NCBI GenBank assembly: GCA_963729535.1
Contig: CAVSOL010000025.1
Coordinates: 1,646-65,645 of the forward strand
Length of the DNA stretch: 64,000 nt
Direction: 5' to 3'
DNA from: an uncultured Pseudomonadota bacterium
Lineage (GTDB): Bacteria; Myxococcota_A; Polyangia; Fen-1088
Shown: in pieces, positions 2,652 to 35,130 of the stretch
Layout: each line of letters begins with the position of its first letter
How positions within the stretch are numbered: position 1 is the stretch's first letter
Made by a program: the position numbers and the translations under genes
Notes under the pieces: model-generated
Told to the model about the DNA's origin: nothing
What the model saw: only the letters and a program-made list of their open reading frames with translations
Databases searched by the model: none

Positions 2652-2926
2652 CGCTGGCAACGCGGCGACCGGCGGCAACGGGGCCACCGGCGGCAACGGG
2701 GCCAGCGGCGGCGTCGGTGTGGCTGGCGCAGCGGGCGCCGGAGCGGCCGGCCGGGGTGGCAGCGGCGGCGCAACGGCCAGCGACGGCGGCGCAAACAATG
2801 ACGGCCCTGGTGGGGGGGCGATGGATCCACGGGTTGCGGCTGCAGCACTGGGGCCGGCGGCACGACGAGCGGGAGCATGTTCTCGCTCCTGTTCGTGCTC
2901 GGGTTGCTCTGGCGACGGCGGCGGCG

Positions 2927-19450: not shown

Positions 19451-22400
19451 TCATCGCGCCCACGACGGCGGCGGACCCACCACCTCGGCGATCGGGACGC
19501 CCATGCGCTGCGCCCGCCGGAGCTGCCGGTGCCGCCACAACGTGTAGAGCACGGGCAGCACCTCCAGCGTCAGGAACGCGCTGGTCGCGAGCCCACCCAG
19601 CATCGGCGCCGCGACCCGCTTCATGATCTCGGCGCCCGCGCCCGTCGCCCACAGCAGCGGCGCCAGCGCCGCCGCCATCGTCACGACCGTCATCAGCTTC
19701 GGGCGCAGCCTGAGCACCGTCCCCTCGGCGTGCGCGGCGACGATGTCGTCGCGGCTCGCGAGTCGCCCTTCGCGCACACGCCGGAAGAACGCGTGATCGA
19801 TGTAGACCACCATCACGACGCCCATCTGCATCGCCAGCCCGACGACCGACAGCAGCCCGACCCACACCGGCGCCGACATGCGATACCCGAGCAGGAACAC
19901 CAACCAGAAGCTCCCCACCAGCGCGAACGGAACCGAGCTGAGCACGATCAGCGCCTCGGTGAGGTTGCGAAACTGGAAGTAGAGCAGGAGCAGCATCGAC
20001 AGCAACACGAGCGGGGCGATCACCAGCAGGCGCCGCTGCCCGGCCTTCCACAGCTCTAGCTGTCCGACCCACTCGATGCGCTCGCCCGAGCGCATCAGCC
20101 CGGCGATGTCGCTGCCGACCTGGCGCCGCGCGCGGTCGACGTAGCCGCCCAGGTCCGTACCCTCCGCGACGCCGACGTGGACGTAGCCGACCAGCTCGCC
20201 GCGCTCCGCGCGCACGACGGCCGGCTGCTTGACCCGGGCCACGCGCCCGAGGAACGCCAGCGGCACGGGCCCGCCGCCGCCCGCCGGCGCCGATGTGGAC
20301 GATCGGACCGTCGTCTCGCGCACCAGCTCGTCGGCGCGGCGGACGTCCTCTCGGCGCCGCGGGACGGCGTCGGGCACCACGCGCACGCGCACGCGCCGAC
20401 CGCCGACGCTCACCTCCCCGATCTCGCCGCCGCTGACGACGACACCGGCGGTGCTCTGCACCAGCGCGGGATCGACGGCGTGCGCGGCGATGGCGTCGTC
20501 GTCGGGGATAAACGTCAGCCGCGTCTCCTCGCCCGCCGACTCCGCGAACGCGCTGCTGGTGCCGTCGACGCGCGACACCGACGCGCGCACCGCCGCCGCC
20601 AGCGCCTCGATGCGCGACGGGTCGGCGGCGACGACGCGCACGCCCACCGGCGTCGTCACCCCCGTCGACAGCATGTCCATGCGCGCGCGGATGGGCGCCG
20701 TCCAGGCGTTGCTCCAGCCCGCCAGCCGGACCATGCCGTCCAGCTTGCGCGCGACGTCGCGCGCCGGCGCCCCGCCTGGATCGTCGCGCGGGCGCAAACG
20801 GATCGTCGTCTCCGCCATCGAATACGGCGCCGGATCGGTCGCGGTGTCGGCCCGGCCGACCTTGCCGAACACCGACTCGACCTCGCGCGCGCTGCGGATG
20901 ATCTGATCCTGGCGCCCCAGATCCGCGGCCGCCTGCTCGGGCGGCACGCCGGCCGCGGTGGTCGGCATGTACAGCAGGTCGCCCTCGTCGATGCGCGGCA
21001 GGAACTCGGGGCCGAGGCGGCCGGCGATGGGCACCGCCGACGCCACCGCCAGGACCGCGGTCGCCAGCGTGAACGCCGGCCGGCGCAGCGCGAAGTCGAC
21101 GAATGGGCGGTAGACCGCCACCAGCGACCGCGTCAGCGGGTTGGCGAGCTCGGGGATGACGCGCCCGCGGCTGAACAGCCGATCGCGCAGCGCGGGCGCG
21201 ACGGTCAGCGCGACCAGCGCCGCCGCCGCGAACACCAGCGTCTTGCTCAGCGCCAGCGGGCGCAGCAGCCGCCCGGTTTCGCCCGTGAACGCCAGCACGG
21301 GGAGAAAGCTCAGCGCCGCGATCATCAACGACGTCAGGATCGCGGGACCGAACGACGCGCCGGCAGCGACGATCGCGCGGCGGCGCTCGTGTGCGCCGCG
21401 CCTGCCGGCGGCGGCTTCCTGCTCGAGTCGCCGGTGACAGCCCTCCAGCGCCACGACGTCGGCGTCGACGGCCATCCCCAGCGCGATGCCGATCCCCGCC
21501 AGGCTCATCACCGTGACCGGTACGCGCAGTAGCCACATCGCCCCGAACGTGAACAGCACCACCAGCGGCAGCGTCAGCAACGGTACCAGCGCGCTGCTCG
21601 CGTGCAACAAGAACACCAGCACGACGACGGCGACCGCGGCTATCTCCTCGACCAGCGCGCGCATCTCGGTGCGCTCGACGGCGCGCACCAGCTCGGAGCG
21701 GTCGTAGACCACTGTCACGCCGACGCCTTTGGGCAGCCGCCGCTGCTCTTGGTCGAGCACACGCTTGACGCCGGCGATGGTGCTGGCGACGTCCGCCCCG
21801 GGACGCGCGATGACGATGCCGCCCACCGTGGGGATGAAGGCGTTGAAGTCGACGGCGCCGCCGGTCATGTCGGCCGCGAGGCGCACGCCCGCCAGCTCGG
21901 GATCCGCGGCGCGCGCGACGTCTTCCACCGTGGCGTGTGGCTTCGCGGCCAGCGCGCCGCGCACCGCCGCGACCACATCGGAGAACGCGGCGTGGCGGGC
22001 ACGCAGCCCGTCGGGCCGCGCTTCGACCAGCAGCTGTTCGCCCTCTCCACCCACGGACGCGACCTCGGCGACCCCGGCAACGCCGGCCAGCGCCGGGCGG
22101 AGCACGTCATCCTGAAACCGGCGCAGGTTGTACAGCGACTCCGGCGACACGCGGTCGTCGCTGGCGTGTGTCCCGTGCTGGCGCACCGCGGGTACGATCA
22201 GCGCGTACTGAAACACCCAGCCGGTCGCCGAGGCTGCCGGCCCCACCTGCACGCGCGCGCTCTGCGGCAGCATCGCGCGTGCCCGCTCGACCCGCGCGAC
22301 GATCTCGGCCCGGCCGCTGGCAAGCTCGTCCGCCGACGCGAACAGCACCTCGACGTACGCCATCCCCGACATCGACGTGCCGCGCACCGCGATCGCGCCC

Positions 22401-22630
22401 GTGATCCCGGCGAGCCCGGCGGTGAGCGGCTTGGTCACGCCCTCCGCCACGTCCAGGGCGCCGTGGCCCATCCACTCGGCGACCAGCGCGACGCGCGCGT
22501 CGGCGAGATCGGGGATCGCGTCGCGGGGAAGCGCGCGCCAGCCGCACGCGGCAGCGAACGCGGCGACCAGCGCCGCCGCGATCACCGCGGCGGGGCGGCG
22601 CGCGCACGCGGCGATCACCCGCGCGATCAA
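19451..22630 (-). CDS. Heavy-metal-efflux RND permease (CusA/CzcA family)
   Basis: 1059 aa. N-terminus LIARVIAAC...LPRDAIPDLADARVALV matches the HME-RND DA(I/L)PDLSD motif. 12-TM/two-loop layout. TTG 22630 overlaps the adaptor stop (TTGA). Confidence 0.85.
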   Translation of the reverse strand: MIARVIAACARRPAAVIAAALVAAFAAACGWRALPRDAIPDLADARVALVAEWMGHGALDVAEGVTKPLTAGLAGITGAIAVRGTSMSGMAYVEVLFASADELASGRAEIVARVERARAMLPQSARVQVGPAASATGWVFQYALIVPAVRQHGTHASDDRVSPESLYNLRRFQDDVLRPALAGVAGVAEVASVGGEGEQLLVEARPDGLRARHAAFSDVVAAVRGALAAKPHATVEDVARAADPELAGVRLAADMTGGAVDFNAFIPTVGGIVIARPGADVASTIAGVKRVLDQEQRRLPKGVGVTVVYDRSELVRAVERTEMRALVEEIAAVAVVVLVFLLHASSALVPLLTLPLVVLFTFGAMWLLRVPVTVMSLAGIGIALGMAVDADVVALEGCHRRLEQEAAAGRRGAHERRRAIVAAGASFGPAILTSLMIAALSFLPVLAFTGETGRLLRPLALSKTLVFAAAALVALTVAPALRDRLFSRGRVIPELANPLTRSLVAVYRPFVDFALRRPAFTLATAVLAVASAVPIAGRLGPEFLPRIDEGDLLYMPTTAAGVPPEQAAADLGRQDQIIRSAREVESVFGKVGRADTATDPAPYSMAETTIRLRPRDDPGGAPARDVARKLDGMVRLAGWSNAWTAPIRARMDMLSTGVTTPVGVRVVAADPSRIEALAAAVRASVSRVDGTSSAFAESAGEETRLTFIPDDDAIAAHAVDPALVQSTAGVVVSGGEIGEVSVGGRRVRVRVVPDAVPRRREDVRRADELVRETTVRSSTSAPAGGGGPVPLAFLGRVARVKQPAVVRAERGELVGYVHVGVAEGTDLGGYVDRARRQVGSDIAGLMRSGERIEWVGQLELWKAGQRRLLVIAPLVLLSMLLLLYFQFRNLTEALIVLSSVPFALVGSFWLVFLLGYRMSAPVWVGLLSVVGLAMQMGVVMVVYIDHAFFRRVREGRLASRDDIVAAHAEGTVLRLRPKLMTVVTMAAALAPLLWATGAGAEIMKRVAAPMLGGLATSAFLTLEVLPVLYTLWRHRQLRRAQRMGVPIAEVVGPPPSWAR

Positions 22631-23466
22631 GGCGTCGCTCCCGCGCGCGGCTCGTCGGCGTCTCGCAGGCGCGCCTGCTCGGCGGCCAGAGCGAAAGCTC
22701 TCGAGACGGCGACGCGCTCGCCTTCGTTCACCCCCGACACCACGACCGCGTGCCCGAAGTGCGTGCGCCCGAGCTCCAGCTTGCGCCTGGTGAACGTGCG
22801 GCCGTTCGCCGACGCCAGGAAGACGAACGTCCCGTCGGGCGTCTCGAACACGGCCGCTTGCGGGACGGTCACCGTGTCGACGGCTGCACGTTCGAACACG
22901 ATCCACCCGGTCTGGCGCGGCGCGAACGCCGGCCCGCCGCGCGCCAGCTCGAACCGCATCGTGACGACGCCGCCGTTCTCTCGTTGCGGCGGATCGCCCG
23001 TGAAGTGGACGTCGCTGCCCGCGCTGTCCGCGCGGGCCGCTGGGTGGAACCGCGCGCGCTGGCCCGCCGCCGCCTCGCCGGCATAGAGCACCGCGACGCC
23101 GCTGCGCTCGCCGTCGATCCGGGCGGGCGCCGTGATCTGACCAGCCACGCGCTTGCGCTTCGCCAGCGCCATATCCTGCTCGGTCAGGCGTGGCGTTCCC
23201 GCCGGCAGTGAAAACGTCGCGCTCCCGCCGGCGGCCACCGGACGCCGCGGCTCGAGCGCCATGCGGCAGATCGGACACTCGCCCGGGAAAGGAGCGACCA
23301 CCTGCTCGTGCATCGGGCAGTAGAACGCCGCGTCGGTGTCGCCGCCGACGCGGGTTTCGATGCGCGCGCGACCGTGAACCGTCAGCGCCGCGATCAGACC
23401 CACCGCTGCTGCCGCCAACAGCACAACCCGCCCCGCCACCACCCTCGCCGGCGCCGGCATCGCCAT
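22627..23466 (-). CDS. Short CusB-like RND periplasmic adaptor with N-terminal heavy-metal-binding domain
   Basis: FYCPMHEQVVAPFPGECPICRMALEP (YxCPMH...CPxCxM motif) after a signal anchor. Beta-barrel/membrane-proximal-like C-terminus (TVPQAAVFETPDGTFVFLA). The ATG shares one nt with the upstream stop. Confidence 0.75.
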   Translation of the reverse strand: MAMPAPARVVAGRVVLLAAAAVGLIAALTVHGRARIETRVGGDTDAAFYCPMHEQVVAPFPGECPICRMALEPRRPVAAGGSATFSLPAGTPRLTEQDMALAKRKRVAGQITAPARIDGERSGVAVLYAGEAAAGQRARFHPAARADSAGSDVHFTGDPPQRENGGVVTMRFELARGGPAFAPRQTGWIVFERAAVDTVTVPQAAVFETPDGTFVFLASANGRTFTRRKLELGRTHFGHAVVVSGVNEGERVAVSRAFALAAEQARLRDADEPRAGATP

Positions 23467-25064
23467 CAGGGTGGGTACTGGACCAGGAAGACGTTGCTGC
23501 CGCCGACCAGTGTCGCGGTAGCCGATGGGAACGCCCCGCCCGCCGGGAATCCCCCGGTCACCAGCAAGTTGCCCGCAGGCGCGATGGCGATCTGTCCGCT
23601 CCGCGCCGGCAGGTGCCGGCTCCACACCCCCGTGCCGCCCGCGTCGAGCCGGGCCGAAAACGTATCGGCTAGCGTGCCGCTGGTGAGCGGCCCCTTGCCG
23701 AAGTCGATCGTGCTCGAGAAGTCGCCGCTGACGAAGACGTTTCCCGCGCCATCCACTGCGATGCTGTTACCGGCCTGGTCCCCTTCGGCGTCCCCGAACT
23801 TCCGGCTCCAGACATGGGCCCCCGCAGCCGCCTCCAGCTTGGCGACGAAGACGTCGCGCGACACCACGGTCCGCGTCGGGGACGGAAGGCTGACCAGCGG
23901 CCCGCCGCCAAAGTCGACGGTGTCGTCGAAGAACCCGGTCACCAGGACGTTGCGCTGCGCGTCCGCCGCGACCGCCAGCGCCGCCGCGGATCCGACGTCG
24001 CCGTAGCGTTTGCTCCACCTATGATCTCCGTTGGCGGCGAGCACCACGACAAACGCATCGGTACGACCCGCGCTCGTCAAAGCGCCACCGCCGAAGTCGA
24101 CAACATTTGCAAACGCTCCCGCAACGATCACGTTGTCCGCGGAATCAACGGCAAGGGAAACGACCTGTGCTCCAGGCCACATTTTGGACCACACCCTGTT
24201 TCCGGAACTATCAAGAACAACGACCGACGAAGTAACGCTGGCGGTCCCCACGCCGCCGTCGGGGCTGGCGTTGCCAAAATCGAACGGCGTCATGGAATGA
24301 GCGGCGGCCACGAAGCGGCCGGTCGAATCGACCGCGGCACCGGTCGCCCACTGCAGGGAAGCGTTTCCGAAGCGCTGGCTCCATTGATGCCTGCCATCCG
24401 CATCGAGCTTCGCAAGGCAGATGTCGGTGGACCCGGCGCTGGCGAGCGCGCCGCCGCCCAGATCGAGTTGTCCGGCGAAGCTGGTTGCGACAAACACGTT
24501 GCCTGATCGATCGACGGCCACCGCGCCTTCCCCTTGCGAGGTGGCGTCGCCCCAGCGCTGGCTCCACAGCGTGCTGCCGGCCCCGTTGAAAGCTGCCATC
24601 ACGAGGTCCCCGACGCCCGCGCTGCGGAGCGGGCCCGTCCCCAGATCGACGGTGCCGTCGAGCATGCCGACGATAACGACGGTACCAGACGACGCCACGG
24701 CGACGTCGGAAGCCCGGATCCATCCGGACGCACCGCCGCCGCCGCCGGGCGCCGCATCCCGCGGTCCGTCATCGCCACCGCCGCTGCCGGACGGCGCGTC
24801 GCGCGGCCCGTCGTCACCGCCACCAACACCGCCGGCGTCGGCGCCCGCAGCGCCCGTGCCGGCCGCCCCGCCCACATCGGCGCCGCCGGCGGCGTCAGCT
24901 CCTCCATCGACGGTGCTTGCGTGGCTGGAACATCCCGCGATCACCGCACAGCCGATCAACAAACATGTAACGACTCGATAATTCGCCACCGAAAACGATG
25001 ATGCTTTCGTCGCTACTGAAATTGCCGGCAATTTATTGCCCAATTCGGTTGCTGTGTTTCGCAT
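23466..25064 (-). CDS. SBBP-type beta-propeller repeat lipoprotein
   Basis: Lipobox VIAGCSS and a Gly/Asp linker. About 8 repeats of the form G...D.A.AVAVD..GNV.V.G.F.G..DFGGG.L.S.G..D.F(V/L)AKL...G...WS..FG. Confidence 0.85.
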   Translation of the reverse strand: MRNTATELGNKLPAISVATKASSFSVANYRVVTCLLIGCAVIAGCSSHASTVDGGADAAGGADVGGAAGTGAAGADAGGVGGGDDGPRDAPSGSGGGDDGPRDAAPGGGGGASGWIRASDVAVASSGTVVIVGMLDGTVDLGTGPLRSAGVGDLVMAAFNGAGSTLWSQRWGDATSQGEGAVAVDRSGNVFVATSFAGQLDLGGGALASAGSTDICLAKLDADGRHQWSQRFGNASLQWATGAAVDSTGRFVAAAHSMTPFDFGNASPDGGVGTASVTSSVVVLDSSGNRVWSKMWPGAQVVSLAVDSADNVIVAGAFANVVDFGGGALTSAGRTDAFVVVLAANGDHRWSKRYGDVGSAAALAVAADAQRNVLVTGFFDDTVDFGGGPLVSLPSPTRTVVSRDVFVAKLEAAAGAHVWSRKFGDAEGDQAGNSIAVDGAGNVFVSGDFSSTIDFGKGPLTSGTLADTFSARLDAGGTGVWSRHLPARSGQIAIAPAGNLLVTGGFPAGGAFPSATATLVGGSNVFLVQYPP

Positions 25065-25109: not shown

Positions 25110-25160
25110 AACCACGATCCGGACTGCTGTGGTCCGGTTAGATCGGATGGGAGGTCGGTG

Positions 25161-28100
25161 ATGGGAAGACTGGTATCGCCTCGGACGTGTGGCGCGGTTG
25201 GTGTTGCCGCCTTGTCCGTGCTCCTGCTGTCGGACGCGCGCGCGGAGCATTGCTGGGAGTACGTCGACGGCTTCGACCCATTGACCGGCAACGTAAACTT
25301 CTCGGGTTTCGAGTTCACGAAGACGCCGTTTCAGTGCGTGCAGCAGGGCAACCTGAGCAACGCCTGCTCGTGGGGGCCAGGGCAATCGTGCACGGTCGGC
25401 GGCACGTGCTGCACCTCGATCCCGGAGCCGGCGTCGCAGCAGACCGTGCTCGACATGCACTCGGAGTGGCACGAATGCTTCGGCCCCGTCGGCCAGCGCG
25501 GCTCCGGCGATCCGCCGCCGTTCGCCGGCCGCAGCGCGCGCTGGCTCGCGTTCCACCGCCAGTTCGAGCTCGACTTCGATCTGATGCGGGAATCGTTGTT
25601 CGGCTGCGGCCCCGGCCGCTGCGTGACGGGGACTTGCAGCAACAGTAGCTCGATCAGCTGCACCACGGACGACCAGTGCAGCGCGCGCGACGGCTGCTTC
25701 TTCGAGGCGCTGGACTGGCGCACGGACATGGTTCACCCCTATGGCCACTTCGGCGGGGGCCTGCAGGTCGGCCAGCATCCGAACAACTGCGGCATCGGTC
25801 CCAGTCGGCCCAACGACGTGATCTGCACCGCCTGCCAGCCGCTCCCTGCGTGTCTCTACAACGCGGGCGCCGGGCCGCTCAACGGCCAGGCGCCGACCAC
25901 GTCGACCGCCGCGAACTGCCTCGGCTTCCAGGCGGAGACGCTGAACACGCTCCCCAACCTCGAGGTCGTGGCCCAGATCCTCGATTCGTCTCACCACGGC
26001 AACTTCCACGGTGAGGTCGGCGCCCCCCTGGCGGGCGCGTGCACCAGCAACGCCGAATGCGTGGCGCGCGCGGCGGCCGCCCCTCCGACATCGCCGCCGT
26101 GCAATACGGCGACGGGCGAGTTCTGTCCGATCTGCGACGGCACCTGCGTCTACGTCTCCGACGTGTTCCAACCGGCCTGCTCGCCGCGCGATCCGATGTT
26201 CTGGCGGCTGCACAAGCGCCTCGACGACACCGTGCGCGCCTGGCAGGAAACCCACCCGATCGACCTCAGCGTCGTCATCGATCGTTCGGGCAGCATGAGC
26301 GAGACCGACAGCTCGGGCGCCACGAAGATCCAGGTCGCCACCGAGGCGCTGCGCATGCTCGCCGACCTGGTCCCCGACGGGCAATCGAGCCGCGTCGGCG
26401 TCGTTTCGTATTCGACCGACGTCACCGCTGACATGCCGATGACCTCGGCGACGACCGCCAAGACGGCGATTGAAGCCGTGGCAGACGGCCTCGAGTCACG
26501 CGTCGGCGGCTGCACGTCGATCGGCTCCGGCTTGCAGGGCGCGGTCAACCAGCTGTGCCACGGTGTCTCGACCGATCCGGCGCCGTCGGCGGGCAAGACC
26601 TCCTGCAACCCGAACCACAATCAGATCCCGGGCGGCGGCGAGAACGAACGCAAGGGCATCTTGTTGCTCACCGACGGGCTCGAGAACCGCGCGCCCTGCC
26701 TGCGCTCCGCTGGCGCGACCCCGACGGCGACGTGCGGTGACACGTGCGGCGGCGAGCAGTTCGACTTCAGGCTGCTCGGCCAGCACACGCAGATGTGCGC
26801 GATCGGCTTCGGGCAGGCGCAGTCCATCAACGGCAACCTGCTGACGCTGGTCGCGGAGCAGCAAGGCGGCATCTACATGCAGAGCCCCGCGAAGGGCCCC
26901 GACGATCAGGAAGGCGTCAACGGCACCGGCCGCTGGGTCGACCTCAAGGACTTCTTCGTCAAGTGCTTCGCCCAGCTGTCGAACGAGTTCGTCGGCATCG
27001 ATCCCAAGGGGACGCTGACCGCCGACGAGTTCTCGACGCCGCCGGTCCCCTACGGCACGTGCGACGACGACCGGCTGACGTTCGTCGGCGGCTGGAACCG
27101 CCCCGGCAGCGGCATCCGCCTGCTGGTCAACGCGCCGTCGGGCGCGCTGGTCCGCCCGGGCGATCCGGCGGTGGAGTCGTCGGGGCAAGACACCTGGGGC
27201 TTCATGCGCACGCCGCTGCCGCTCAACGGCGAGCGCGCGGGCACGTGGACCGCGCAGCTGATTCGCCAGCACGACTCGTACGTCAACGGCTTCACCACCG
27301 ACGCGCTGGCGCCCGACGTCGCGGTGCCGATGGTGCGCAAGCAGATCCAGCGCATCTGTCCGACGGGCTGCGACAGCGTGCTGTACTTCGAGGACGGCCG
27401 CCTCGGTCCGCGCTCGTCGTATGAAGACGCGCTGGCGGCCGAGCTGGCGACCGGCCTCATCGGATCGGTGGTGCGTGCGACGGACGCGAGCGACTTCCAC
27501 GCCAAGCTGAACTCGGTGCCGGTGTGGCCGCTGGTCGTCTACGCGCACCAGATGACCGAGGGGGATGAGCCCTACGACCTCGACTTCCTCGGCGACGTCT
27601 GCGGCGGCCGCCAGCGTGCGATCGTCACCGAGACGCGCGGTCTCGACAACATCAACCAGACGCCGGCGCCCGGGGATGCCAATTTCATCCCCTGGAACAT
27701 CAACCGTTGCACAGGCGGGGAGCCGTTCGGCGAGACAAACTTCACGCACATCGACGGTGACGACCGGCTGCTCACCGGATCGCACACGCTGACCAACCAC
27801 GGCTACGCGCGCTTCAGCTACGGCCAGGTGCTGGCCACGCTGGGCGGCGGAACGCAGGCGACGGCGTCGTCGTACGCGCTGGCCATGGGCGCGGTGTCGG
27901 CCGAAGGCGGCACCCCCTGCCTGTACGAGGGGTGCGAGACGCCCCCGACGCAGAACTGGTTCATCAACATCCTGGTCCGCGGCATGTCCCAGCTGGAGGA
28001 CGTCGCCACGCGCTTCAGCTACCGCACGGGCGAATCAGGGATCCAGGCGAGCGCACGCGTGTTGCCCGCCAACCTCCCCGTCGGTGGCTACGACGTATCC

Positions 28101-29702
28101 GACGTCCGCGTCACCGTCGAACGTCCGACGACCGGGGTCGGTCAGACGCTGCTCAACACAGGGCCGCAGGCCTCCGGCGCCACGCCGACCGCGGATGGTC
28201 CCGCGGGCCGCGCCGCCGCGCTGGGCGTCGCCACGCGCATCCCGACCACGACGCAAAGCTACGTGCTCAACGACGAAGGCGTCGACGGCGATGTCGAGCC
28301 GCGCAACGCCTACTGGAGCCGGACCATCCCCGACTCCGATACGCCCGGACAGTGTCTGGTCGACGGCATGTACAAGATGCACTTCACGGCCAACTTCACC
28401 AAGAACGGCTGCACCACGCGGCGCGAGCTGGTGCGCTCCACCTTCGTCGACGTCGGCGTCGACCCGCGGGTCAGCAACCTGGTCATCACGCCGCAGACCA
28501 ACGGCATGGTGGTGAACGTCTGTCCGCAGGACCGCTGCGGCAACAAGTCGGGTTGGGGGCGGCGCATCAGCTGCAACCCGAGCCCCGGCTGCAGCTGCGC
28601 ACCGTCGGACATCGTCGACCACGGCAACGGCTGCTATTCGATCACCGTTCACTCGAGCCCGGGCGTCGGCACCTGCACCATCGACGGCACCGGCAAGCCG
28701 ATCGACGTCAAGGTGCCTGTCGTCGCCAACGCGGGACCCGATCAGCTCCTGCAGTGCTCGGGTGGTGGCGCCAACGCCCAGCTCGACGGGCGGCAGTCGT
28801 TCGATTCGAACGGCGCGCAGCTGACCTACCTGTGGACGGCGTCCGGGATCACGTTCAGCAATCCGGCCAGCGCGACGCCGACCGCCCGCTTCCCGATCGG
28901 GACGACGGTGGTAACGCTGCGGGTGACCAGCCCCAGCGGCGGCATCGCCACCGACACGGTCCTGATCACGGTCGTCGACACGCAGCCTCCCGTGCTGGTG
29001 GTTCCGCCCGACATCACGATCTCGCAGTGCAACAGCCCGAACGTCGGAACCGCGACCGTGAGCGACGTCTGCGGTGGCACTGTGACGCTCACCAACAACA
29101 AGCCCACGCGCTTCCCGCTGGGGACGACGGTGGTGACGTACTTCGCGGTCGATCGCTTCGGCAACGCGACGTCGGCAACACAGCGGGTGACCGCCGTGCT
29201 CGGCGACGACACGTCGTGCTGCCCGCCGGGGACGACGATAAGGGTCGGGACGCCCAGCAACGACACGCTGACCGGCACCGCCGGCTCGGACTGCATCCTG
29301 GGCCGCGGCGCGCAGGACACCATCAACGGCCTGGGTGGCAACGACTTCATCTCGGGCGGCGAGGGGAACGACGTCATCGACGGCGGCTCGGGCAACGACT
29401 GGCTGTTCGGCGGCGGCGGTCAGGACACGCTGCGCGGCGGTCTGGGCAACGACACCCTCGACGGCCTCGACGGTGACGACCAGTGCTTCGGCGGTGACAA
29501 CGAAGACACCATCCGAGGCGGGCAAGGGCAGGACAGGCTGTTCGGGGAGAACGGAAACGATCAGCTGTCCGGCGACGACGGCGACGATCGCCTGGAGGGC
29601 GGCGCCGGCAACGACGCGCTCAACGGCGGTGGGCTGCACGACACCTGCATCGGCGGAGCGGGCACCGACACCTTCGCGCTGTGCGAATCGGTGACGCAAT
29701 GA
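25161..29702 (+). CDS. Giant secreted multidomain protein: type-3-copper (tyrosinase-like) domain, VWA, large unknown region, PKD/HYR-like modules, C-terminal RTX Ca-binding repeats
   Basis: GGGAGG RBS and signal peptide (VGVAALSVLLLSDARA). CuB-like HHGNFHGEVG...SPRDPMFWRLHKRLDDTVRAW and WLAFHRQFELDFD. VWA MIDAS VVIDRSGSMS...LLLTDGLEN. HYR-like PPVLVVPPDITI...FPLGTTVVTYFAVDRFGN. At least 9 GGxGxD-type nonapeptides (GGEGNDVIDGGSGNDWLFGGGGQDTLRGGLGND...). Confidence 0.9.
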   Translation: MGRLVSPRTCGAVGVAALSVLLLSDARAEHCWEYVDGFDPLTGNVNFSGFEFTKTPFQCVQQGNLSNACSWGPGQSCTVGGTCCTSIPEPASQQTVLDMHSEWHECFGPVGQRGSGDPPPFAGRSARWLAFHRQFELDFDLMRESLFGCGPGRCVTGTCSNSSSISCTTDDQCSARDGCFFEALDWRTDMVHPYGHFGGGLQVGQHPNNCGIGPSRPNDVICTACQPLPACLYNAGAGPLNGQAPTTSTAANCLGFQAETLNTLPNLEVVAQILDSSHHGNFHGEVGAPLAGACTSNAECVARAAAAPPTSPPCNTATGEFCPICDGTCVYVSDVFQPACSPRDPMFWRLHKRLDDTVRAWQETHPIDLSVVIDRSGSMSETDSSGATKIQVATEALRMLADLVPDGQSSRVGVVSYSTDVTADMPMTSATTAKTAIEAVADGLESRVGGCTSIGSGLQGAVNQLCHGVSTDPAPSAGKTSCNPNHNQIPGGGENERKGILLLTDGLENRAPCLRSAGATPTATCGDTCGGEQFDFRLLGQHTQMCAIGFGQAQSINGNLLTLVAEQQGGIYMQSPAKGPDDQEGVNGTGRWVDLKDFFVKCFAQLSNEFVGIDPKGTLTADEFSTPPVPYGTCDDDRLTFVGGWNRPGSGIRLLVNAPSGALVRPGDPAVESSGQDTWGFMRTPLPLNGERAGTWTAQLIRQHDSYVNGFTTDALAPDVAVPMVRKQIQRICPTGCDSVLYFEDGRLGPRSSYEDALAAELATGLIGSVVRATDASDFHAKLNSVPVWPLVVYAHQMTEGDEPYDLDFLGDVCGGRQRAIVTETRGLDNINQTPAPGDANFIPWNINRCTGGEPFGETNFTHIDGDDRLLTGSHTLTNHGYARFSYGQVLATLGGGTQATASSYALAMGAVSAEGGTPCLYEGCETPPTQNWFINILVRGMSQLEDVATRFSYRTGESGIQASARVLPANLPVGGYDVSDVRVTVERPTTGVGQTLLNTGPQASGATPTADGPAGRAAALGVATRIPTTTQSYVLNDEGVDGDVEPRNAYWSRTIPDSDTPGQCLVDGMYKMHFTANFTKNGCTTRRELVRSTFVDVGVDPRVSNLVITPQTNGMVVNVCPQDRCGNKSGWGRRISCNPSPGCSCAPSDIVDHGNGCYSITVHSSPGVGTCTIDGTGKPIDVKVPVVANAGPDQLLQCSGGGANAQLDGRQSFDSNGAQLTYLWTASGITFSNPASATPTARFPIGTTVVTLRVTSPSGGIATDTVLITVVDTQPPVLVVPPDITISQCNSPNVGTATVSDVCGGTVTLTNNKPTRFPLGTTVVTYFAVDRFGNATSATQRVTAVLGDDTSCCPPGTTIRVGTPSNDTLTGTAGSDCILGRGAQDTINGLGGNDFISGGEGNDVIDGGSGNDWLFGGGGQDTLRGGLGNDTLDGLDGDDQCFGGDNEDTIRGGQGQDRLFGENGNDQLSGDDGDDRLEGGAGNDALNGGGLHDTCIGGAGTDTFALCESVTQ

Positions 29703-30132
29703 ACCGCTCGCGACTGCTCGCCACCGCGCTCGCCGTCGGCTTCGTCGCCGCCGGGGCGGTGATGTACTTCGCCGTCGGGAGGGCGCCGCGGCAGGAACGA
29801 GCGCTGATCGAACGACGCGCCCACGCAAAGCAAACCAACGGTGCCAGGCCGCCGCACGCGAAGCGGGTAGCGCCGGGTGACGAGGCGCCGCCGTTCCAGG
29901 CGCCCGCCGAGCCCGACATGCCGGAGGGGGATCGCCGGCGCGCGTCCCCTACCTGCAGGCGATGATCGCCGGCGACGAAAACGCGTTGCAGCTCGCGCGC
30001 GACGGGCTGGTCGCGGCGCAGGCGGGCCCGGGCCCCGCCTCACCCGGCCACCTCCGCAACCTGCACGAGATGGAGCGGATCTACGCCGAGCGCCTGGCGC
30101 GCCATCAGCGCGCGCTCGCGGAATCAAACTAG
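29699..30132 (+). pseudogene. Small single-TM protein translationally coupled (ATGA) to the giant gene; one frame break in a G5 run
   Basis: MNRSRLLATALAVGFVAAGAVMYFAV.... The frame stops at 29965, but the coding-like frame resumes (...VPYLQAMIAGDENALQLARDGLVAAQ...ERLARHQRALAESN*) if one G is added to G5 at 29926-29930. Confidence 0.55.
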
Positions 30133-30211
30133 AGCGCTGTCGGCACCCGCCCGCGCGACAATGCTCGGTGGCGTGCAGCTCGTGCACCAGCCGCCGGGCG
30201 ACGTGAAACAC

Positions 30212-30239
30212 GTCTAGTCGACCGAATGGTCGACTAGAC
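30212..30239. terminator. Perfect 12-bp-stem hairpin/palindrome
   Basis: GTCTAGTCGACC-GAAT-GGTCGACTAGAC, 80 nt after stop 30132; no U tract. Confidence 0.45.
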
Positions 30240-30437
30240 CCACGCGTCATTGGCCCAGATAACGCGTTCCGCCCACTCGCCCCGGTCCCAGATCGCCCGT
30301 GTGCACTTGGCCCGCCGCCCGATGCCTCGGTCGTCGCGGTTTCGTCGCTCACCCCACCTTTTCTGTAAAAAAGCCGCTGGCAGCCAGCAGTGTAGCGTAG
30401 GCGCGCATTGCATCGCCCAGAGCGCCTAGGAGTGACC

Positions 30438-32204
30438 ATGAGCCTGATCGCGTGCAAACGTTCTTGGCGGGTGCCCTTTGGAGGAAACCTCGCGGGACTG
30501 CTCGCTATTCTGCTGTCGGGCTGTGTGGGACAGGTCGGGCAGCAATCCCCGCCGCAGGGAGCCGGCGGAACCGGTGCACCACAGGGAGCTGGCGGAACCG
30601 GCGTACCGCAGGGATCTGGCGGCGGCGGGATCATGCCGACGGGAGCCGCGGGTGCATCCGGCATGCCGCTGGACTGCACCGGGCCGCACCTCGAGGCATC
30701 GCCGATTCGCCGCCTGACCCGCCGCGAGTACAACACCGTCGTCAACCATCTACTCGGCGACACCACCAGGCCGGCCGACCAGTTCGTGTCGGAGACCGCG
30801 CAATCTGGCTTTCTCAACGGCGCCGACAGCACGCCTTTGAGTCCGGTCGTCGTCGATGACTTCGAGCGCGCAGCAACGACGCTGGCCAAAAACGCGACGG
30901 CGGCGGCCAACCTGAGGAATCTGCTCGGTTGCGATCCGAACGCGACTGCCGGACAGGATACCTGCGCGACCAACTTCATCCGCAGCTTCGGAGCGCGCGC
31001 GTTCCGCAGGACCCTCGATGATGCGCAGGTCGCCGACTATCAGTCGCTCTACATGACCCGGAAGGCAGACGGGTTCGCGGTGGCCATCGAGCTGGTCGTC
31101 CGCGCCATCTTGCAGTCGCCGTATTTCCTTTACCGAGTCGAGTTCGGCGAGGCGAATCCCAGCGGCGCTGCCATCGTGAAACTGACGCCGGAGGAGACGG
31201 CGGCGCGGCTGGCCTTGCTGTTCTGGGGCGGCCTTCCCGACGCGACGCTCACGCAGGCCGCGAAAGACGGGAAACTGAACACGTCGGCTGACGTGCGGGC
31301 GCAGGCCAACCGCATGCTCACGGACGCAAAGGGCAGCGCCGTGTTCACCGACTTTCACGTCCAGTGGGGACAGCTCGAAGGCCTGCCAAACCTCACCAAG
31401 CCTGCGCCGTTCACGCCCGACGTCGGCCGACTGCTCATCGAAGAGACGAAGGAGTTCGTCGACCAGACCTTGCGCAAGGGCGACGGGCTGCTCACGACCC
31501 TGTTTACCAGCCCCGTCACGTACCTCAATCAACAGCTCGCGACGTATTACGGTGTCACAGGCGTAACCGGGACAACTTTCGTGCCGGTGACGCTGCCGGC
31601 CGGTCAACGCGCCGGGCTTCTGACACAGGGGAGCATCGCCGCGAACTTCGCCCACGGAACGGAGTCGTCGCCGGTGCTGCGCGGCAAGTTCATCCTCTCG
31701 CAAGTGTTGTGCTCGCCGCCCCAGCCGCCGCCCGACAACATCGACACCAGCCTGCCTGCCCCGGATCCCACGAAGACCGCACGGCAGCAGTTGACCGAGC
31801 TAACGGGCACCGGCGTCTGCGCCTCCTGCCACTCGCTGCTGAATCCGATCGGCTTCGCCCTCGATCACTTTGATGGTCTGGGGCGCTATCGCGCGACCGA
31901 TCGCGGGATGGCCATCGATACGAGCGCGCAGGTGGTGTTCCCGGCCGATCTGAGGGGGACCTACACCGGTCATGAAGACTTCTTGCGCGGGCTCGCGAAC
32001 AGCAACGCCGCCCGGAGCTGCCTGTCGTCGAAATGGTTCATCTACAGCCACGGCCGTGTGCCCGGGGCCGAAGATGCCTGCTCGCTGTCAGCGGCGGCCA
32101 CCGCTTTCAAGAACGACGGCAACGTTCGTGAGCTGCTGCTCAGCATCACCGAGACACCCGCCTTTCTCTACCTCCGGACCACCCCGCAAGGAGTTTCGCC
32201 GTGA
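30438..32204 (+). CDS. DUF1587/DUF1592/DUF1595/DUF1588/DUF1585-family lipoprotein
   Basis: AGGAG RBS then ATG 30438; lipobox LLSGC. Family hallmarks: IRRLTRREYNTVVNHLLGD, LQSPYFLYRVE, SSPVLRGKFILSQVLC, CASCHSLLNPIGFALDHFDGLGRYR. Confidence 0.85.
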   Translation: MSLIACKRSWRVPFGGNLAGLLAILLSGCVGQVGQQSPPQGAGGTGAPQGAGGTGVPQGSGGGGIMPTGAAGASGMPLDCTGPHLEASPIRRLTRREYNTVVNHLLGDTTRPADQFVSETAQSGFLNGADSTPLSPVVVDDFERAATTLAKNATAAANLRNLLGCDPNATAGQDTCATNFIRSFGARAFRRTLDDAQVADYQSLYMTRKADGFAVAIELVVRAILQSPYFLYRVEFGEANPSGAAIVKLTPEETAARLALLFWGGLPDATLTQAAKDGKLNTSADVRAQANRMLTDAKGSAVFTDFHVQWGQLEGLPNLTKPAPFTPDVGRLLIEETKEFVDQTLRKGDGLLTTLFTSPVTYLNQQLATYYGVTGVTGTTFVPVTLPAGQRAGLLTQGSIAANFAHGTESSPVLRGKFILSQVLCSPPQPPPDNIDTSLPAPDPTKTARQQLTELTGTGVCASCHSLLNPIGFALDHFDGLGRYRATDRGMAIDTSAQVVFPADLRGTYTGHEDFLRGLANSNAARSCLSSKWFIYSHGRVPGAEDACSLSAAATAFKNDGNVRELLLSITETPAFLYLRTTPQGVSP

Positions 32205-33712
32205 AGCCGATCAGCCGACGGACCCTGTTGCGTACGGCCACCGGCTTCGCCGTTGGTCTCCCCTTCCTCGAGGCGATGCGTCCGAGCGGAGCGCGTGCCC
32301 AGTCGTTGACGCCGCCCAAGCGGTTCCTCGTCTGGTACACGCCGGTCGGCACGGTCCTGAGCGCGTGGAAACCGACGGGCACCGGCACGGCCTGGACCGC
32401 CGGACGAATCTTGAAGCCGCTCGATGTTCCGGCGATCCGCGAGCGCATGACGATCCTGTCCGGGGTTCACGCGGCAGCCGCGGAGAAGCTCGCGGGCAAC
32501 GGTCACGCGAAAGGCATGACCCACGTCCTCACAGCGCGCCCCTACGTCGAGGTCAAAGGAACCCAGTTCGGCAACGAAGGGTGGGGCGGCGGAATCAGCA
32601 TCGACCAGTTCCTTGCCGCGAAGATGGCGACGGCGGGCCGTCTCAACTCCGTCGAGGCCGGCGTCGTGTCGTTCTACTCGGGCGGTCCCAGCCGGTACAT
32701 GAGCTATTCCGGCGCCGGCCAGGCCAACATCGTGCCGGTCGAATCGGATCCCCGGAAGCTGTTCGCGCGGCTATTCACGGCGGGGATGTCGACGGGGGCG
32801 GGTGGTACGTCGGGCATGATGCCTGAAATCGACCGTCTGGCGGTTCAGCGCAAGAGCGTCCTCGACACGGTGCTCAAGGATCTCACTCGCTTGAAAGGCA
32901 AGCTGGGGGGAGTCGACAGGGAGCGCGTCGAAAAGCATTTCGATCTCGTCCGGCAGGTCGAGCAGAGAATCCAGATCACCGGCGCGGGCGGCGCCGGCGG
33001 CAGTGGCGGGAGCACGCGTCCCCCCGGGTGCACAACGCCCGCGTCGCCGAGCTACACGAACGATCAGGTCAGGGCCAACAATCAGTTGCCGGCGATCGCC
33101 AAGACGACCATGGACCTGATGGCGCTCGGGTTGGCTTGCGATACGGTGCGCGTCGGTTCACTCCTGTGGTCAGCGGGTGAATCCGAATACAACTTCGCCG
33201 AGATTCTGCCGAGCGCGCCCTGGAAGGACCTGTCCTGCCCGCCCAACGTCGACACATGCACGGATGGCAAGAATTTGCCTGCGACGTTTCTGCACGTCAT
33301 GTCGCATTTTCCGCCGTCGACGGCCAACGGTGTGCCTGGAAACCTGAACACCGTTCAGAAGGCGGCTCTCGAATGCCTCACGGTCGTCGAGGAGTGGTTC
33401 TCGCAGCAACTGGCGTATTTCGCGCAGAAGCTCATCGACATCAAGGAAGCGGACGGCAGCAGCATTCTCGACAATACGGTCTTGCTGTCCGTGAAAGACA
33501 TCAGCGAAGGCGTGACGCATGGTTACCGCGACGTGCCTCACGTCTTGCTGGGTGGAAAGGGTCTGTTCAAGCCAGGCCATTTCAGCCTGCAGAATCGCAA
33601 GACCTCGGGTGATCTATACGCGACGATCGCGCAGGCGCTGGGCTACAGCGACGTCGCGAGCTTCGGTGACCCGGCGTACTTCACTGGACCCATCACCGAA
33701 GTCCGCGCGTGA
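32201..33712 (+). CDS. DUF1552 domain protein with twin-arginine signal
   Basis: GTGA overlap with the upstream gene; MKPISRRTLLRTATGFAVGLPFLEAM is the typical DUF1552 N-terminus. Confidence 0.85.
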   Translation: MKPISRRTLLRTATGFAVGLPFLEAMRPSGARAQSLTPPKRFLVWYTPVGTVLSAWKPTGTGTAWTAGRILKPLDVPAIRERMTILSGVHAAAAEKLAGNGHAKGMTHVLTARPYVEVKGTQFGNEGWGGGISIDQFLAAKMATAGRLNSVEAGVVSFYSGGPSRYMSYSGAGQANIVPVESDPRKLFARLFTAGMSTGAGGTSGMMPEIDRLAVQRKSVLDTVLKDLTRLKGKLGGVDRERVEKHFDLVRQVEQRIQITGAGGAGGSGGSTRPPGCTTPASPSYTNDQVRANNQLPAIAKTTMDLMALGLACDTVRVGSLLWSAGESEYNFAEILPSAPWKDLSCPPNVDTCTDGKNLPATFLHVMSHFPPSTANGVPGNLNTVQKAALECLTVVEEWFSQQLAYFAQKLIDIKEADGSSILDNTVLLSVKDISEGVTHGYRDVPHVLLGGKGLFKPGHFSLQNRKTSGDLYATIAQALGYSDVASFGDPAYFTGPITEVRA

Positions 33713-35130
33713 TTCACCGTAGCGGCAGCGGACACCTGCTCCGCTGCATGATGGGACTGTGGGTGGCGACCGCTTCGCTGCTCGGAAGTGGCTGTCTACC
33801 GAGCGCGTCCGGCGGTAACGATGGGCCAAGAGGAGGTACCACCGGGAGCGCGGGCGCGGGCGGCGCCCCGGCAGGTGCGGCGGGAGCAGGTCCGGGCGGA
33901 GCGACTGGTTCGATGGCGGGTGGCGGAGGTGCGCCGGCAACCGGCGGCAGCGGACTGGGTGGCGGCGGCAGCGGACTCGCTGGCAGCGGTAGCGGACTTG
34001 GTGGCAGCGGCAGCGGACTCGCTGGCACGGGCGGCACATCCGGGGCGGGCGGCGCCGCCGATGGAGGCGCGAGCATCGGTGGGCAGGGGGGACGCGCCGG
34101 CAGCGGCGGCGCGGTCGGGGCGGGCGGGGCCGGGGGCGGTGCGGCAGGCGGTGGCGGCCAGGCGGGCCGACCCGATCCAGGCAACGAAGGCGACGGTGAT
34201 TTCAACATCGGTCCGACCTACGTCACGCAACCGGATCTGATGGACCGCGGCGCGCCCAAAGGGCGGAGCTTCCAATTCTCGATGACGCTGGCGAGCAGCA
34301 CCATCTTCGACGGCAAGGATGCAACTCTGGATCGCGCCAAGCCGGTCAACACGACACGCACCATCTCGGTGTACGTGCCGGCCCAATATCAGGACGGCAC
34401 CGCCGCGCCCGTCCTCGTCATTCAGGATGGACCGGGCGACATCAACCTCGTCAAATACGCGCTGGACAACCTGACGGTTGCGCAGGATCCGGCGCGGCGA
34501 ATCCCACCTTTCGTTGCGGTCGCCGTTCAGAACGGCGGCAATGACAGCAAAGGCAGCGAGCGTGGCCTCGAGTACGACACGATGTCCGACCGCTATGCCC
34601 GCTTCATCCACCAGGAGGTTCTGCCCGCGGTGGTGAGCAATTCAATGATCAAGGCCGCGTATCCGAATCTCAAGATCACCGACGACCCGCAGGGCCGGGC
34701 GACGCTGGGTTGTAGCTCCGGCGCGGCCGCTGCCGTGACCATGGCTTGGTTTCGCCCGGACCTGTTCAGCAAAGTCATTTCGTATTCGGGAACGCTCGTC
34801 GATCAACAAGACGACGATGCGCCCGAAGAAGCGATGTATCCGTTCGGTGCCTGGGAATATCACTCGAGCAAGGCGCTCATCGCGAGCTCGCCGAAGAAGG
34901 ATCTGCGAGTCTTCTTGAACGTTGCCGAGAACGATCTGAGCTCCAGTGATGCCGAGTCGACCCATCACAACTGGGTCCTGGCCAATCAGCGGACGGCCGC
35001 GGCGCTCAAAGCGAAGGGCTACCACTATCGCTATGTCTTCGCGCGCGGCGTGGGCCACTGCGACAGCCGCGTGCGCGGCGCGACCCTGGCCGATGCCCTG
35101 ATCTGGGTGTGGCGGGGCTACCAGCCGTGA
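33709..35130 (+). CDS. Lipoprotein esterase (putative esterase / esterase-D-like alpha/beta hydrolase) with Gly-rich linker
   Basis: GTGA overlap; lipobox LGSGC. About 130 aa Gly/Ala linker. GxSxG nucleophile elbow LGCSSGAAAA and a His near the C-terminus (RGVGHCD). Confidence 0.8.
   Translation: MIHRSGSGHLLRCMMGLWVATASLLGSGCLPSASGGNDGPRGGTTGSAGAGGAPAGAAGAGPGGATGSMAGGGGAPATGGSGLGGGGSGLAGSGSGLGGSGSGLAGTGGTSGAGGAADGGASIGGQGGRAGSGGAVGAGGAGGGAAGGGGQAGRPDPGNEGDGDFNIGPTYVTQPDLMDRGAPKGRSFQFSMTLASSTIFDGKDATLDRAKPVNTTRTISVYVPAQYQDGTAAPVLVIQDGPGDINLVKYALDNLTVAQDPARRIPPFVAVAVQNGGNDSKGSERGLEYDTMSDRYARFIHQEVLPAVVSNSMIKAAYPNLKITDDPQGRATLGCSSGAAAAVTMAWFRPDLFSKVISYSGTLVDQQDDDAPEEAMYPFGAWEYHSSKALIASSPKKDLRVFLNVAENDLSSSDAESTHHNWVLANQRTAAALKAKGYHYRYVFARGVGHCDSRVRGATLADALIWVWRGYQP

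Follow-up and report, generated by a model that had tools for sequence, protein, structure and literature searches.

A predicted exported bacterial protein in which a putative hemocyanin-type copper domain is fused to a VWA domain

The stretch analyzed here, referred to as the window, comprises 64,000 nucleotides of contig CAVSOL010000025.1 (positions 1,646 to 65,645, forward strand) from an uncultured bacterium of the Polyangia. It contains a gene of 1,513 codons plus a stop codon at 25161..29702 (+). The product belongs to a family whose conserved unit consists of a copper domain, a VWA domain bearing a full metal ion-dependent adhesion site (MIDAS), and a stalk of about 600 residues; the building blocks are all known folds, and their obligate fusion is new. 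By alignment, the CuA half of the copper center has the arrangement of arthropod hemocyanins and prophenoloxidases (PPOs). We favor, with moderate confidence, the reading that the protein is a Sec-exported binuclear-copper oxidase, tethered to a surface or matrix, which would dock on a macromolecule through its VWA/MIDAS domain and oxidize phenols or catechols there.

Results

Assignment of the N-terminal domain and its copper ligands

The N-terminal domain (aa 29-366, 25245..26258 [+]) contains 25 cysteines. As a single sequence it gave a marginal result against the PDB, with Streptomyces tyrosinase at E=0.017 and only the CuB tail aligned, and a word-indexed search of 5.8 billion sequences returned only seven relatives, four of them with precomputed Tyrosinase and VWA matches. 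A profile of the domain, run exhaustively against 1.84 billion cluster representatives, gave 118 matches at E<1e-3 (33 at E<1e-30), about 25 of which were full-length proteins (1,000 to 1,640 aa) with the copper domain at the N terminus. Thirty-eight full-length proteins were used for a family alignment and a per-member Pfam scan, and 21 of them matched Pfam Tyrosinase (PF00264) at E<1e-3, the best at 3.9e-9. The 39 weaker, remote matches of the profile were 35 Pfam Tyrosinase and 4 Hemocyanin_M proteins. In the PDB, the top-ranked entries for the family profile were exclusively tyrosinases, hemocyanins, and PPOs, and Streptomyces tyrosinase now aligned over both copper sites (E=0.0015). Since the Pfam matches, the remote matches, and the PDB ranking agree, membership of the type-3 (binuclear) copper superfamily is well supported at the family level by sequence comparison.

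Both putative copper sites were placed by the family alignment and by mapping to Limulus hemocyanin (described below). The CuA site (aa 99-135, 25455..25565 [+]) reads H100-x3-H104-x27-H132 within MHSEWH...AFHRQF, and the CuB site (aa 278-355, 25992..26225 [+]) reads H279-x3-H283...F347-x3-H351-x3-D355. Residues H100, W103, H104, H132, H279, F347, H351, and D355 are invariant among the 38 members, and H283 is more than 90% conserved; the CuB signature noted in the sequence-only reading, H-x3-H in HHGNFH, is thus present at 278-283. Published markers of the superfamily are an aromatic residue four positions before the third histidine (H3) at both sites and an aspartate four positions after H3 of CuB (PMC3658974). 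The family carries all three as invariant residues, W128 at CuA, F347 at CuB, and D355, with a tryptophan at position 128 where PMC3658974 names phenylalanine.

The CuA site aligns with that of arthropod hemocyanins

The spacing of the CuA histidines had at first been taken as atypical; alignment indicates instead that it is the beta-subclass pattern. One remote match, P0121, is a clear homolog of arthropod-type hemocyanin (Limulus hemocyanin II, 1lla; E=1e-68), and we counted residues through two chained alignments by way of this protein. H100/H104/H132 correspond to Limulus H173/H177/H204 at CuA, and H279/H283/H351 to H324/H328/H364 at CuB, so that H100-x3-H104-x27-H132 here stands against H173-x3-H177-x26-H204 in Limulus. 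The second CuA histidine (H2) of Streptomyces tyrosinase (H54, eight residues before H3) aligns with Gly123, a position occupied by G, N, A, or R across the family. In the classification of Aguilera et al., the CuA site of the alpha and gamma subclasses follows H1(n)-H2(8)-H3, whereas H2 lies elsewhere in the beta subclass, and the bacteria examined in that 2013 survey yielded members of the alpha subclass only (PMC3658974). Because the alignment with Limulus is one to one, the alpha-type H2 position is a glycine, and the superfamily markers are present, we assign the CuA site, on sequence grounds, to the hemocyanin/phenoloxidase type, here in a bacterial protein predicted to be exported. The H-x3-H form of CuA is not unique to the VWA-fusion family, since H-x2-W-H is common to many of the remote bacterial matches. 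We found no description of a hemocyanin-type CuA arrangement in bacteria.

Arthropod hemocyanins and PPOs (Limulus hemocyanin II, 1lla/1oxy; Manduca PPO, 3hhs) have the same CuA pattern, H-x3-H-x(~26)-H, and the same CuB pattern, H-x3-H...F-x3-H-x3-D, and all six ligands align. They are, however, cytosolic proteins that lack a signal peptide and contain Hemocyanin_N and Hemocyanin_C domains, neither of which was detected in a Pfam scan of the 1,513-aa protein; the latter is bacterial and cysteine rich, has a Sec leader and a VWA fusion, and resembles the arthropod proteins only by profiles. The bacterial alpha-subclass tyrosinases (Streptomyces MelC2 with its caddie MelC1, 1wx2, and those of Bacillus megaterium and Verrucomicrobium spinosum), which include the best PDB match, share the CuB motif PRDP-x-FW-x-H and an extracellular location. 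The 1,513-aa protein differs from them in having Gly123 in place of H2 and a glycine for the asparagine after the first CuB histidine, in being about five times larger, with extra domains, and in having a leader with no twin-arginine translocation (Tat) motif and no caddie gene among the neighbors at 31 loci.

The VWA domain is fused directly to the copper domain

A VWA domain (aa 367-580, 26259..26900 [+]) with a complete MIDAS (D374-x-S376-x-S378, T452, D505) follows the copper domain, as had been read from the sequence. Both Pfam models score above their cutoffs: VWA_2 at E=9e-12 (46 bits; cutoff, 27) and VWA at E=2e-9 (38.4 bits; cutoff, 23.8). VWA_2 was found in 38 of 38 full-length members. 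All 38 aligned members share the MIDAS residues D374, S376, G377, and S378, within DRSGS, and conservation of T452 and D505 exceeds 90%. In every member, the VWA domain starts about 6 residues past the last helix of the copper domain (WQETHP-IDLSVVIDRSGSM).

Multidomain VWA proteins of surfaces and matrices, with an integrin I-domain-like MIDAS, also place a complete-MIDAS VWA domain next to an N-terminal metallo-domain and ahead of beta-sandwich modules. The metazoan CLCA-type layout of a catalytic domain, a VWA domain, and a beta-sandwich is comparable to that of the 1,513-aa protein. The likeness drawn here is one of layout; the partner here is a putative di-copper oxidase and theirs is a zinc protease.

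The fixed, short connection between the two domains raises the alternative that the copper domain is without catalytic turnover and serves as a module for hemocyanin-like O2 binding or sensing, or that it belongs to a latent proenzyme shielded by the VWA domain in the manner of a caddie. The beta (hemocyanin/PPO) type of the CuA site is consistent with such a role, as is the constant six-residue spacing; in other type-3 proteins, a neighboring domain commonly covers the active site (PMC3658974, PMC10526336). An extracellular O2 carrier would have no obvious use for a bacterium, however, and the full conservation of the MIDAS points to an external ligand rather than to a purely intramolecular lid. 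We consider this alternative unlikely, though it is the strongest of those weighed here.

The middle region is predicted to form a stalk, and the tails vary

The VWA domain is followed by a family-specific middle region (aa 581-1185, 26901..28715 [+]) that is conserved among the members. The sequence-only reading had described about 700 aa with no recognizable motif; the region indeed covers some 600 to 700 aa with no PDB sequence relative, and a scan of 24 members found no Pfam family even at E<=0.1. An AlphaFold2 (AF2) model built from 24 sequences was confident (predicted local distance difference test [pLDDT], 86.9; predicted template modeling score [pTM], 0.77), so that the structure prediction proposed for this part of the protein yielded a usable result. 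The model contains a beta-sandwich (~608-709), a flavodoxin-like alpha/beta module (~718-859), and a beta-sandwich/immunoglobulin (Ig)-like portion (~863-1184); the alpha/beta module (~736-900) is missing from about 11 members. A Foldseek search of the PDB with the middle region found only generic tandem Ig-like arrays, with template modeling scores of at most 0.17, the neighbors being the Sap S-layer protein, the invasin InvD, fibronectin type III chains, and the beta-domains of transglutaminase and alpha2-macroglobulin. From the predicted fold, we read the middle region as a stalk. A second enzyme domain was considered and is unsupported, given that the Foldseek matches were Ig-like only and that there was no Pfam or PDB relative, the alpha/beta insert not having been searched separately.

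At the C terminus lie a PKD-like Ig module (aa 1186-1271, 28716..28973 [+]), a HYR domain (aa 1272-1344, 28974..29192 [+]), and a repeats-in-toxin (RTX) calcium-binding beta-roll (aa 1372-1506, 29274..29678 [+]). Of the HYR and PKD modules proposed earlier, HYR scored above its cutoff (PF02494; E=3.8e-6, 27.6 bits against 21.7), whereas PKD was detected only below threshold (K319L-like_PKD, 16.2 bits against a cutoff of 27; PKD_4, 12.8 bits, also below its cutoff); orthologous fragments bear precomputed PKD matches. The RTX tail matched HemolysinCabind at E=3e-29 in seven stretches, and the earlier count of at least 9 nonapeptides rises to 13 with a relaxed pattern. The order of domains, from copper to VWA, middle region, PKD/HYR, and RTX, had been read correctly.

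The C-terminal part is not shared by the whole family. HemolysinCabind was found in 4 of 38 members and HYR in 3 of 38, and the PKD-like/HYR/RTX tail (1186-1513) is limited to the closest relatives, namely, P0016, P0008, P0009, and the ortholog in locus L001; it is an add-on of one Polyangia clade. Other members end in a transmembrane anchor (P0012) or in FlgD_ig, cohesin, P-domain, or pyrroloquinoline quinone (PQQ)-propeller modules, and one remote match has a type IX secretion system (T9SS) sorting tail (Por_Secre_tail). Such lineage-variable tails are typical of surface or secreted proteins.

Genes beside the family

The sequence-only reading had placed a heavy-metal pump and a small membrane protein on either side of the gene. 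The immediate upstream neighbor, divergently transcribed, is instead an SBBP beta-propeller lipoprotein-like gene (23466..25064 [-]; Pfam SBBP, with an NCBIfam LipL53-like match below cutoff), which has the same arrangement in L001 and L004 (48 to 50% identity by tblastn). The CusA/CzcA-like heavy-metal resistance-nodulation-division (RND) pump gene (19451..23278 [-]; ACR_tran, E=6e-136; TIGR00914, 626 bits, below the 701 cutoff) lies beyond it and also occurs in the syntenic L001; its start codon is uncertain. From the first start codon the pump gene would encode 1,275 aa, and the best-aligned stretch covers only residues ~460-1253; the pump may carry extra N-terminal sequence, its start may be miscalled, or the gene may be disrupted. 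Downstream, the small open reading frame (ORF) with one transmembrane helix is present (29681..29965 [+]), overlaps the stop codon of the gene, and is weakly conserved: only its first 30 aa match L001 (E=4e-4), and its status as a gene is uncertain. A 472-aa antisense ORF (29561-30979 [-]) that overlaps the 3' end of the gene was rejected as noncoding; its GC content by codon position is flat (0.67/0.69/0.71), it showed neither a Pfam or NCBIfam match nor conservation, and it is most likely a spurious ORF of a high-GC sequence.

At other loci the RND, CusBA, and MauG-like neighbors are clade specific. In loci of the Lysobacterales type, a di-heme cytochrome c peroxidase/MauG-like gene (CCP_MauG, E~1e-39) comes after the family gene in the same orientation, and convergent genes for CusB, with its heavy-metal-binding domain, and CusA lie beyond it. 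A YtkA-like ORF lies between the family gene and the MauG-like gene in L029. Upstream there is a lipoxygenase gene (L011:7358-9271) or a gene for a BBE-type flavin adenine dinucleotide (FAD) oxidase (L014:7437-8918). The elements of the MauG-like/YtkA-like/CusBA context downstream lie at L011:13730-15043, L014:13728-15008, L020:13275-14795, L029:13201-13701, and L014:15016-19442. These loci may represent an "oxidative" gene cluster. A protein with the same class of enzyme is encoded in the window at 2159-5224 (+), here 20 kb away from the family gene; its 1,021 aa comprise PKD, SMP-30/gluconolactonase-like, di-heme cytochrome c peroxidase/MauG, and RoxA-like cytochrome c portions.

That a heavy-metal pump gene neighbors the gene of this copper protein in two lineages that are not related hints at copper supply or coregulation, although the association is far from universal. 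It also bears on the possibility that the protein acts in periplasmic copper homeostasis, or responds to copper, by sequestering the metal or acting on it alongside a Cus/Czc-type efflux system and is not a phenol oxidase. The CusA/CzcA-like pump gene is located some 2 kb upstream of the family gene both in the window and in the syntenic L001, the unrelated proteobacterial loci L014 and L029 have CusB and CusA (above the curated cutoff) beside the family gene, and L029 adds its YtkA-like ORF after that gene. Yet adjacency is found in only about two independent lineages among the 31 loci, with varying orientation; L004 and L005, the other Polyangia loci, lack it. The VWA domain, the stalk, and the anchoring tails would make little sense for metal handling, and type-3 copper sites activate O2 and are not copper stores; we know of no precedent for such a site in copper storage. 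A role in copper homeostasis is accordingly judged improbable.

Other features of the window were recorded. A 762-aa protein encoded at 14634-16922 (-) joins TPR repeats to a cytochrome c7-like multiheme cytochrome c with paired CXXCH motifs. A PSCyt3/PSD2-5 gene (DUF1585/1587/1588/1592/1595) and an adjoining DUF1552 (HXXSHH) gene occupy 30408-33712 (+), and a putative esterase gene follows the latter at 33709-35130. The gene at 50707-55185 (+) encodes another very large secreted protein, unrelated to the family, whose 1,492 aa comprise an S8 subtilase with BACON, malectin, and three CarboxypepD_reg domains.

A probable Sec route of export

The first 28 residues (25161..25244 [+]) are predicted from the sequence to be a Sec-type signal peptide cleaved at ARA|EH, with neither a twin-arginine motif nor a lipobox, and N-terminal hydrophobic leaders are present across the family. 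Of the 59 cysteines of the mature protein, 25 lie within the copper domain. No HlyB-type ATP-binding cassette (ABC) transporter, HlyD, or TolC gene was found among about 30 ORFs of the window scanned by Pfam. A scan of the whole window for Walker-A/LSGGQ motifs gave one Walker-A site, 32 kb off and beside an FtsX-type permease, and tblastn with CusB detected no membrane-fusion gene in it. The earlier observation of an N-terminal signal peptide with no type I secretion system (T1SS) genes nearby therefore holds within the 64 kb.

The RTX repeats nonetheless invite comparison with classical RTX adhesins or toxins exported by a T1SS (HlyA, serralysins, and large RTX adhesins), in which case the copper and VWA domains would be passengers. 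Tandem GGxGxDxUx nonapeptides, expected to form a Ca2+ beta-roll, are common to these proteins and the one studied here; the 13 nonapeptides and the strong HemolysinCabind score speak for such a route, and partial NCBIfam matches to RTX toxins and serralysin tails agree with it. The signal peptide is canonical, however, and only 7 residues remain after the last RTX repeat where a C-terminal signal of about 50 aa would be expected. T1SS substrates are generally cysteine poor, unlike this protein; the transporter genes are lacking in the window, and the RTX tail is missing from 34 of 38 members. Type I export is thus very unlikely. Because of the signal peptide, the 59 cysteines, the short C terminus, and the lack of T1SS genes in the window, export by Sec, with oxidative folding outside the cytoplasm, is most likely, and the RTX block is best read, from its sequence, as a Ca2+-dependent beta-roll serving folding or attachment.

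The gene is genuine, and its family is rare and patchy

The reading frame runs uninterrupted from an ATG at 25161 (a GTG at 25158 is an alternative start) to the stop codon ending at 29702. A Shine-Dalgarno-like GGGAGG (25149..25154 [+]) lies 6 nt 5' of the ATG. The GC content at third codon positions (GC3), a uniform 0.91 against about 68% GC for the genome, is a strong coding signature. A syntenic ortholog with identical domain order and 61 to 78% identity, though frameshifted, is found in L001, and P0016 is a cluster representative with 83% identity to the 1,513-aa protein. Because orthologs with the same order exist, the frame is not a chance ORF. The gene call made from the letters alone was therefore genuine, with every listed motif in its place (MHSEWH, 99-104; AFHRQF, 130-135; HHGNFH, 278-283; MFWRLHK, 346-352; DRSGS, 374-378), and the orthologs that it called for are present. 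The divergent genes are separated by 96 nt, and this spacer contains, just 5' of the ribosome-binding site, an inverted repeat with perfect 6-bp arms (CCGGAC-N7-GTCCGG, 25119-25137) that could be a regulatory hairpin or operator. An assembly or gene-fusion artifact uniting unrelated genes, for which one might cite the long spurious ORFs of high-GC genomes and the many frameshifts of the related L001 contig, was rejected as having a negligible probability, given the uniform coding GC3, a colinear order that is the same in 38 proteins from several phyla, and intact copies in long or complete assemblies such as that of Tahibacter soli.

The distribution of the family was examined by scanning 185,579 species-representative genomes for the motif W[YLF]AFHRQF, which gave 27 loci. 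Two of the 27 are in Polyangia and are the closest (58 to 60% identity); many are in Acidobacteriota (Pyrinomonadaceae, Thermoanaerobaculia, and Terriglobales), and further loci occur in Phycisphaera, Saprospiraceae, and Lysobacterales, including the cultured Tahibacter soli, and Bradyrhizobium sp. TZ2 has a single locus. Occurrence of the family is rare and patchy, with most of the genomes being metagenome assembled. The Tahibacter soli copy (L020) is intact and has all motifs. In the complete genome of Bradyrhizobium sp. TZ2 (CP170752.1; L024:9968-13562), the first ~70 codons are apparently in another frame, so that this copy could be a pseudogene or reflect a sequencing error.

Several metagenomic relatives (L001:10001-14582, P0001, P0002, P0008, and P0010) carry frameshifts that run into Arg/Pro-rich out-of-frame tails and look like assembly indel errors, and gene callers cut one gene of ~1,500 aa into three to five pieces. 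Since frameshifted genes are called in pieces, the family is probably undercounted in protein databases. A divergent subfamily of about 900 to 1,280 aa lacks the alpha/beta insert (P0012, P0048, P0050, P0057, P0059, P0060, P0064, P0066, P0067, and P0069); the copper domain of this subfamily is more compact (HRNWH...FHRQF...WHGSFH...RDPAFWMAHKK).

Discussion

Taken as a tethered phenol/catechol oxidase, the protein might work as follows. The N-terminal binuclear center (H100/H104/H132 at CuA and H279/H283/H351 at CuB), if loaded with copper as its conserved ligands suggest, would bind O2 and most likely turn catechol or phenol groups into o-quinones. The VWA domain, rigidly fused behind it, would use a divalent cation at the MIDAS to hold an acidic group on a macromolecular ligand. 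The stalk of ~600 aa, built of predicted beta-sandwiches with an alpha/beta insert, would project the copper-VWA head, and in the Polyangia the PKD-HYR-RTX tail may provide Ca2+-dependent folding and attachment to a surface or matrix. The enzyme would thus dock on a polymer or surface and then oxidize, cross-link, or clear phenolics there, with cross-linking, melanization, or detoxification as candidate outcomes.

Several observations weigh against this proposal. The tyrosinase assignment made from the sequence alone is borne out by profile matches for the family, with 21 of 38 members and the remote matches in agreement, whereas the 1,513-aa protein taken singly reaches PF00264 only at E=0.0037 and 18.1 bits, below the cutoff of 22.6, with only the CuB end of the model covered. 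The AF2 model of the N-terminal domain, built from 8 sequences, has a pLDDT of 39.6 and an unreliable geometry, although it places long helices at the four ligand-bearing segments. The asparagine that follows the first CuB histidine in many tyrosinases is linked to monophenol hydroxylation, and the residue at this position is glycine across the family; true tyrosinase (monophenolase) activity is doubtful on this basis, and the chemistry could be that of a catecholase or of another kind. Because of this glycine, we write of a phenol/catechol oxidase and not of a tyrosinase. Finally, clustering of neighbors at 31 loci revealed no universal partner, small conserved partner, caddie (MelC1) or chaperone gene, or substrate gene.

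Few metalloenzymes have been studied as thoroughly as the type-3 copper proteins. Neither Pfam nor NCBIfam has a family for the full architecture, both giving only partial domain matches, and the NCBI label for one relative is merely "vWA domain-containing protein." A literature search found no bacterial tyrosinase-VWA fusion, the nearest cases being mollusc matrices with separate proteins. The impression that an oxidase-adhesin-RTX architecture had not been described agrees with these negative results. In mollusc shell matrices and byssus, secreted tyrosinase and VWA matrix proteins occur together in the extracellular matrix, and tyrosinase-made 3,4-dihydroxyphenylalanine (DOPA) underlies mussel adhesion (e.g., PMC5379566 and PMC11667028). 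The two functions reside there on separate eukaryotic proteins and here on one bacterial polypeptide; the relation is one of analogy, not homology.

A broader interpretation, which we advance only tentatively, is that these proteins form an unrecognized bacterial lineage with a hemocyanin/phenoloxidase-type CuA site, always fused to a MIDAS-bearing VWA domain, in which a single chain captures its ligand and oxidizes or cross-links it, and that RTX, transmembrane, or T9SS anchors place it at the surface. If this is true, the family would be, by analogy, a single-chain bacterial counterpart of the mollusc tyrosinase-plus-VWA matrix and adhesive systems. The intact copy in the cultured Tahibacter soli makes the hypothesis directly testable, and the family adds about 600 conserved residues that lie outside any cataloged domain.

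An exported bacterial family with a putative hemocyanin/PPO-type CuA site bears on the origin of the type-3 subclasses, and permanent linkage of an oxidase to a ligand-binding domain would be a novel means of aiming quinone chemistry at a surface. Bacterial tyrosinases have been proposed as regulators of soil carbon storage (PMC9454253, PMC8375020). For the bacteria that carry it, such a protein may be relevant to the hardening of biofilms and matrices, to melanization, to predation by myxobacteria, and to the turnover of phenolics in soil.

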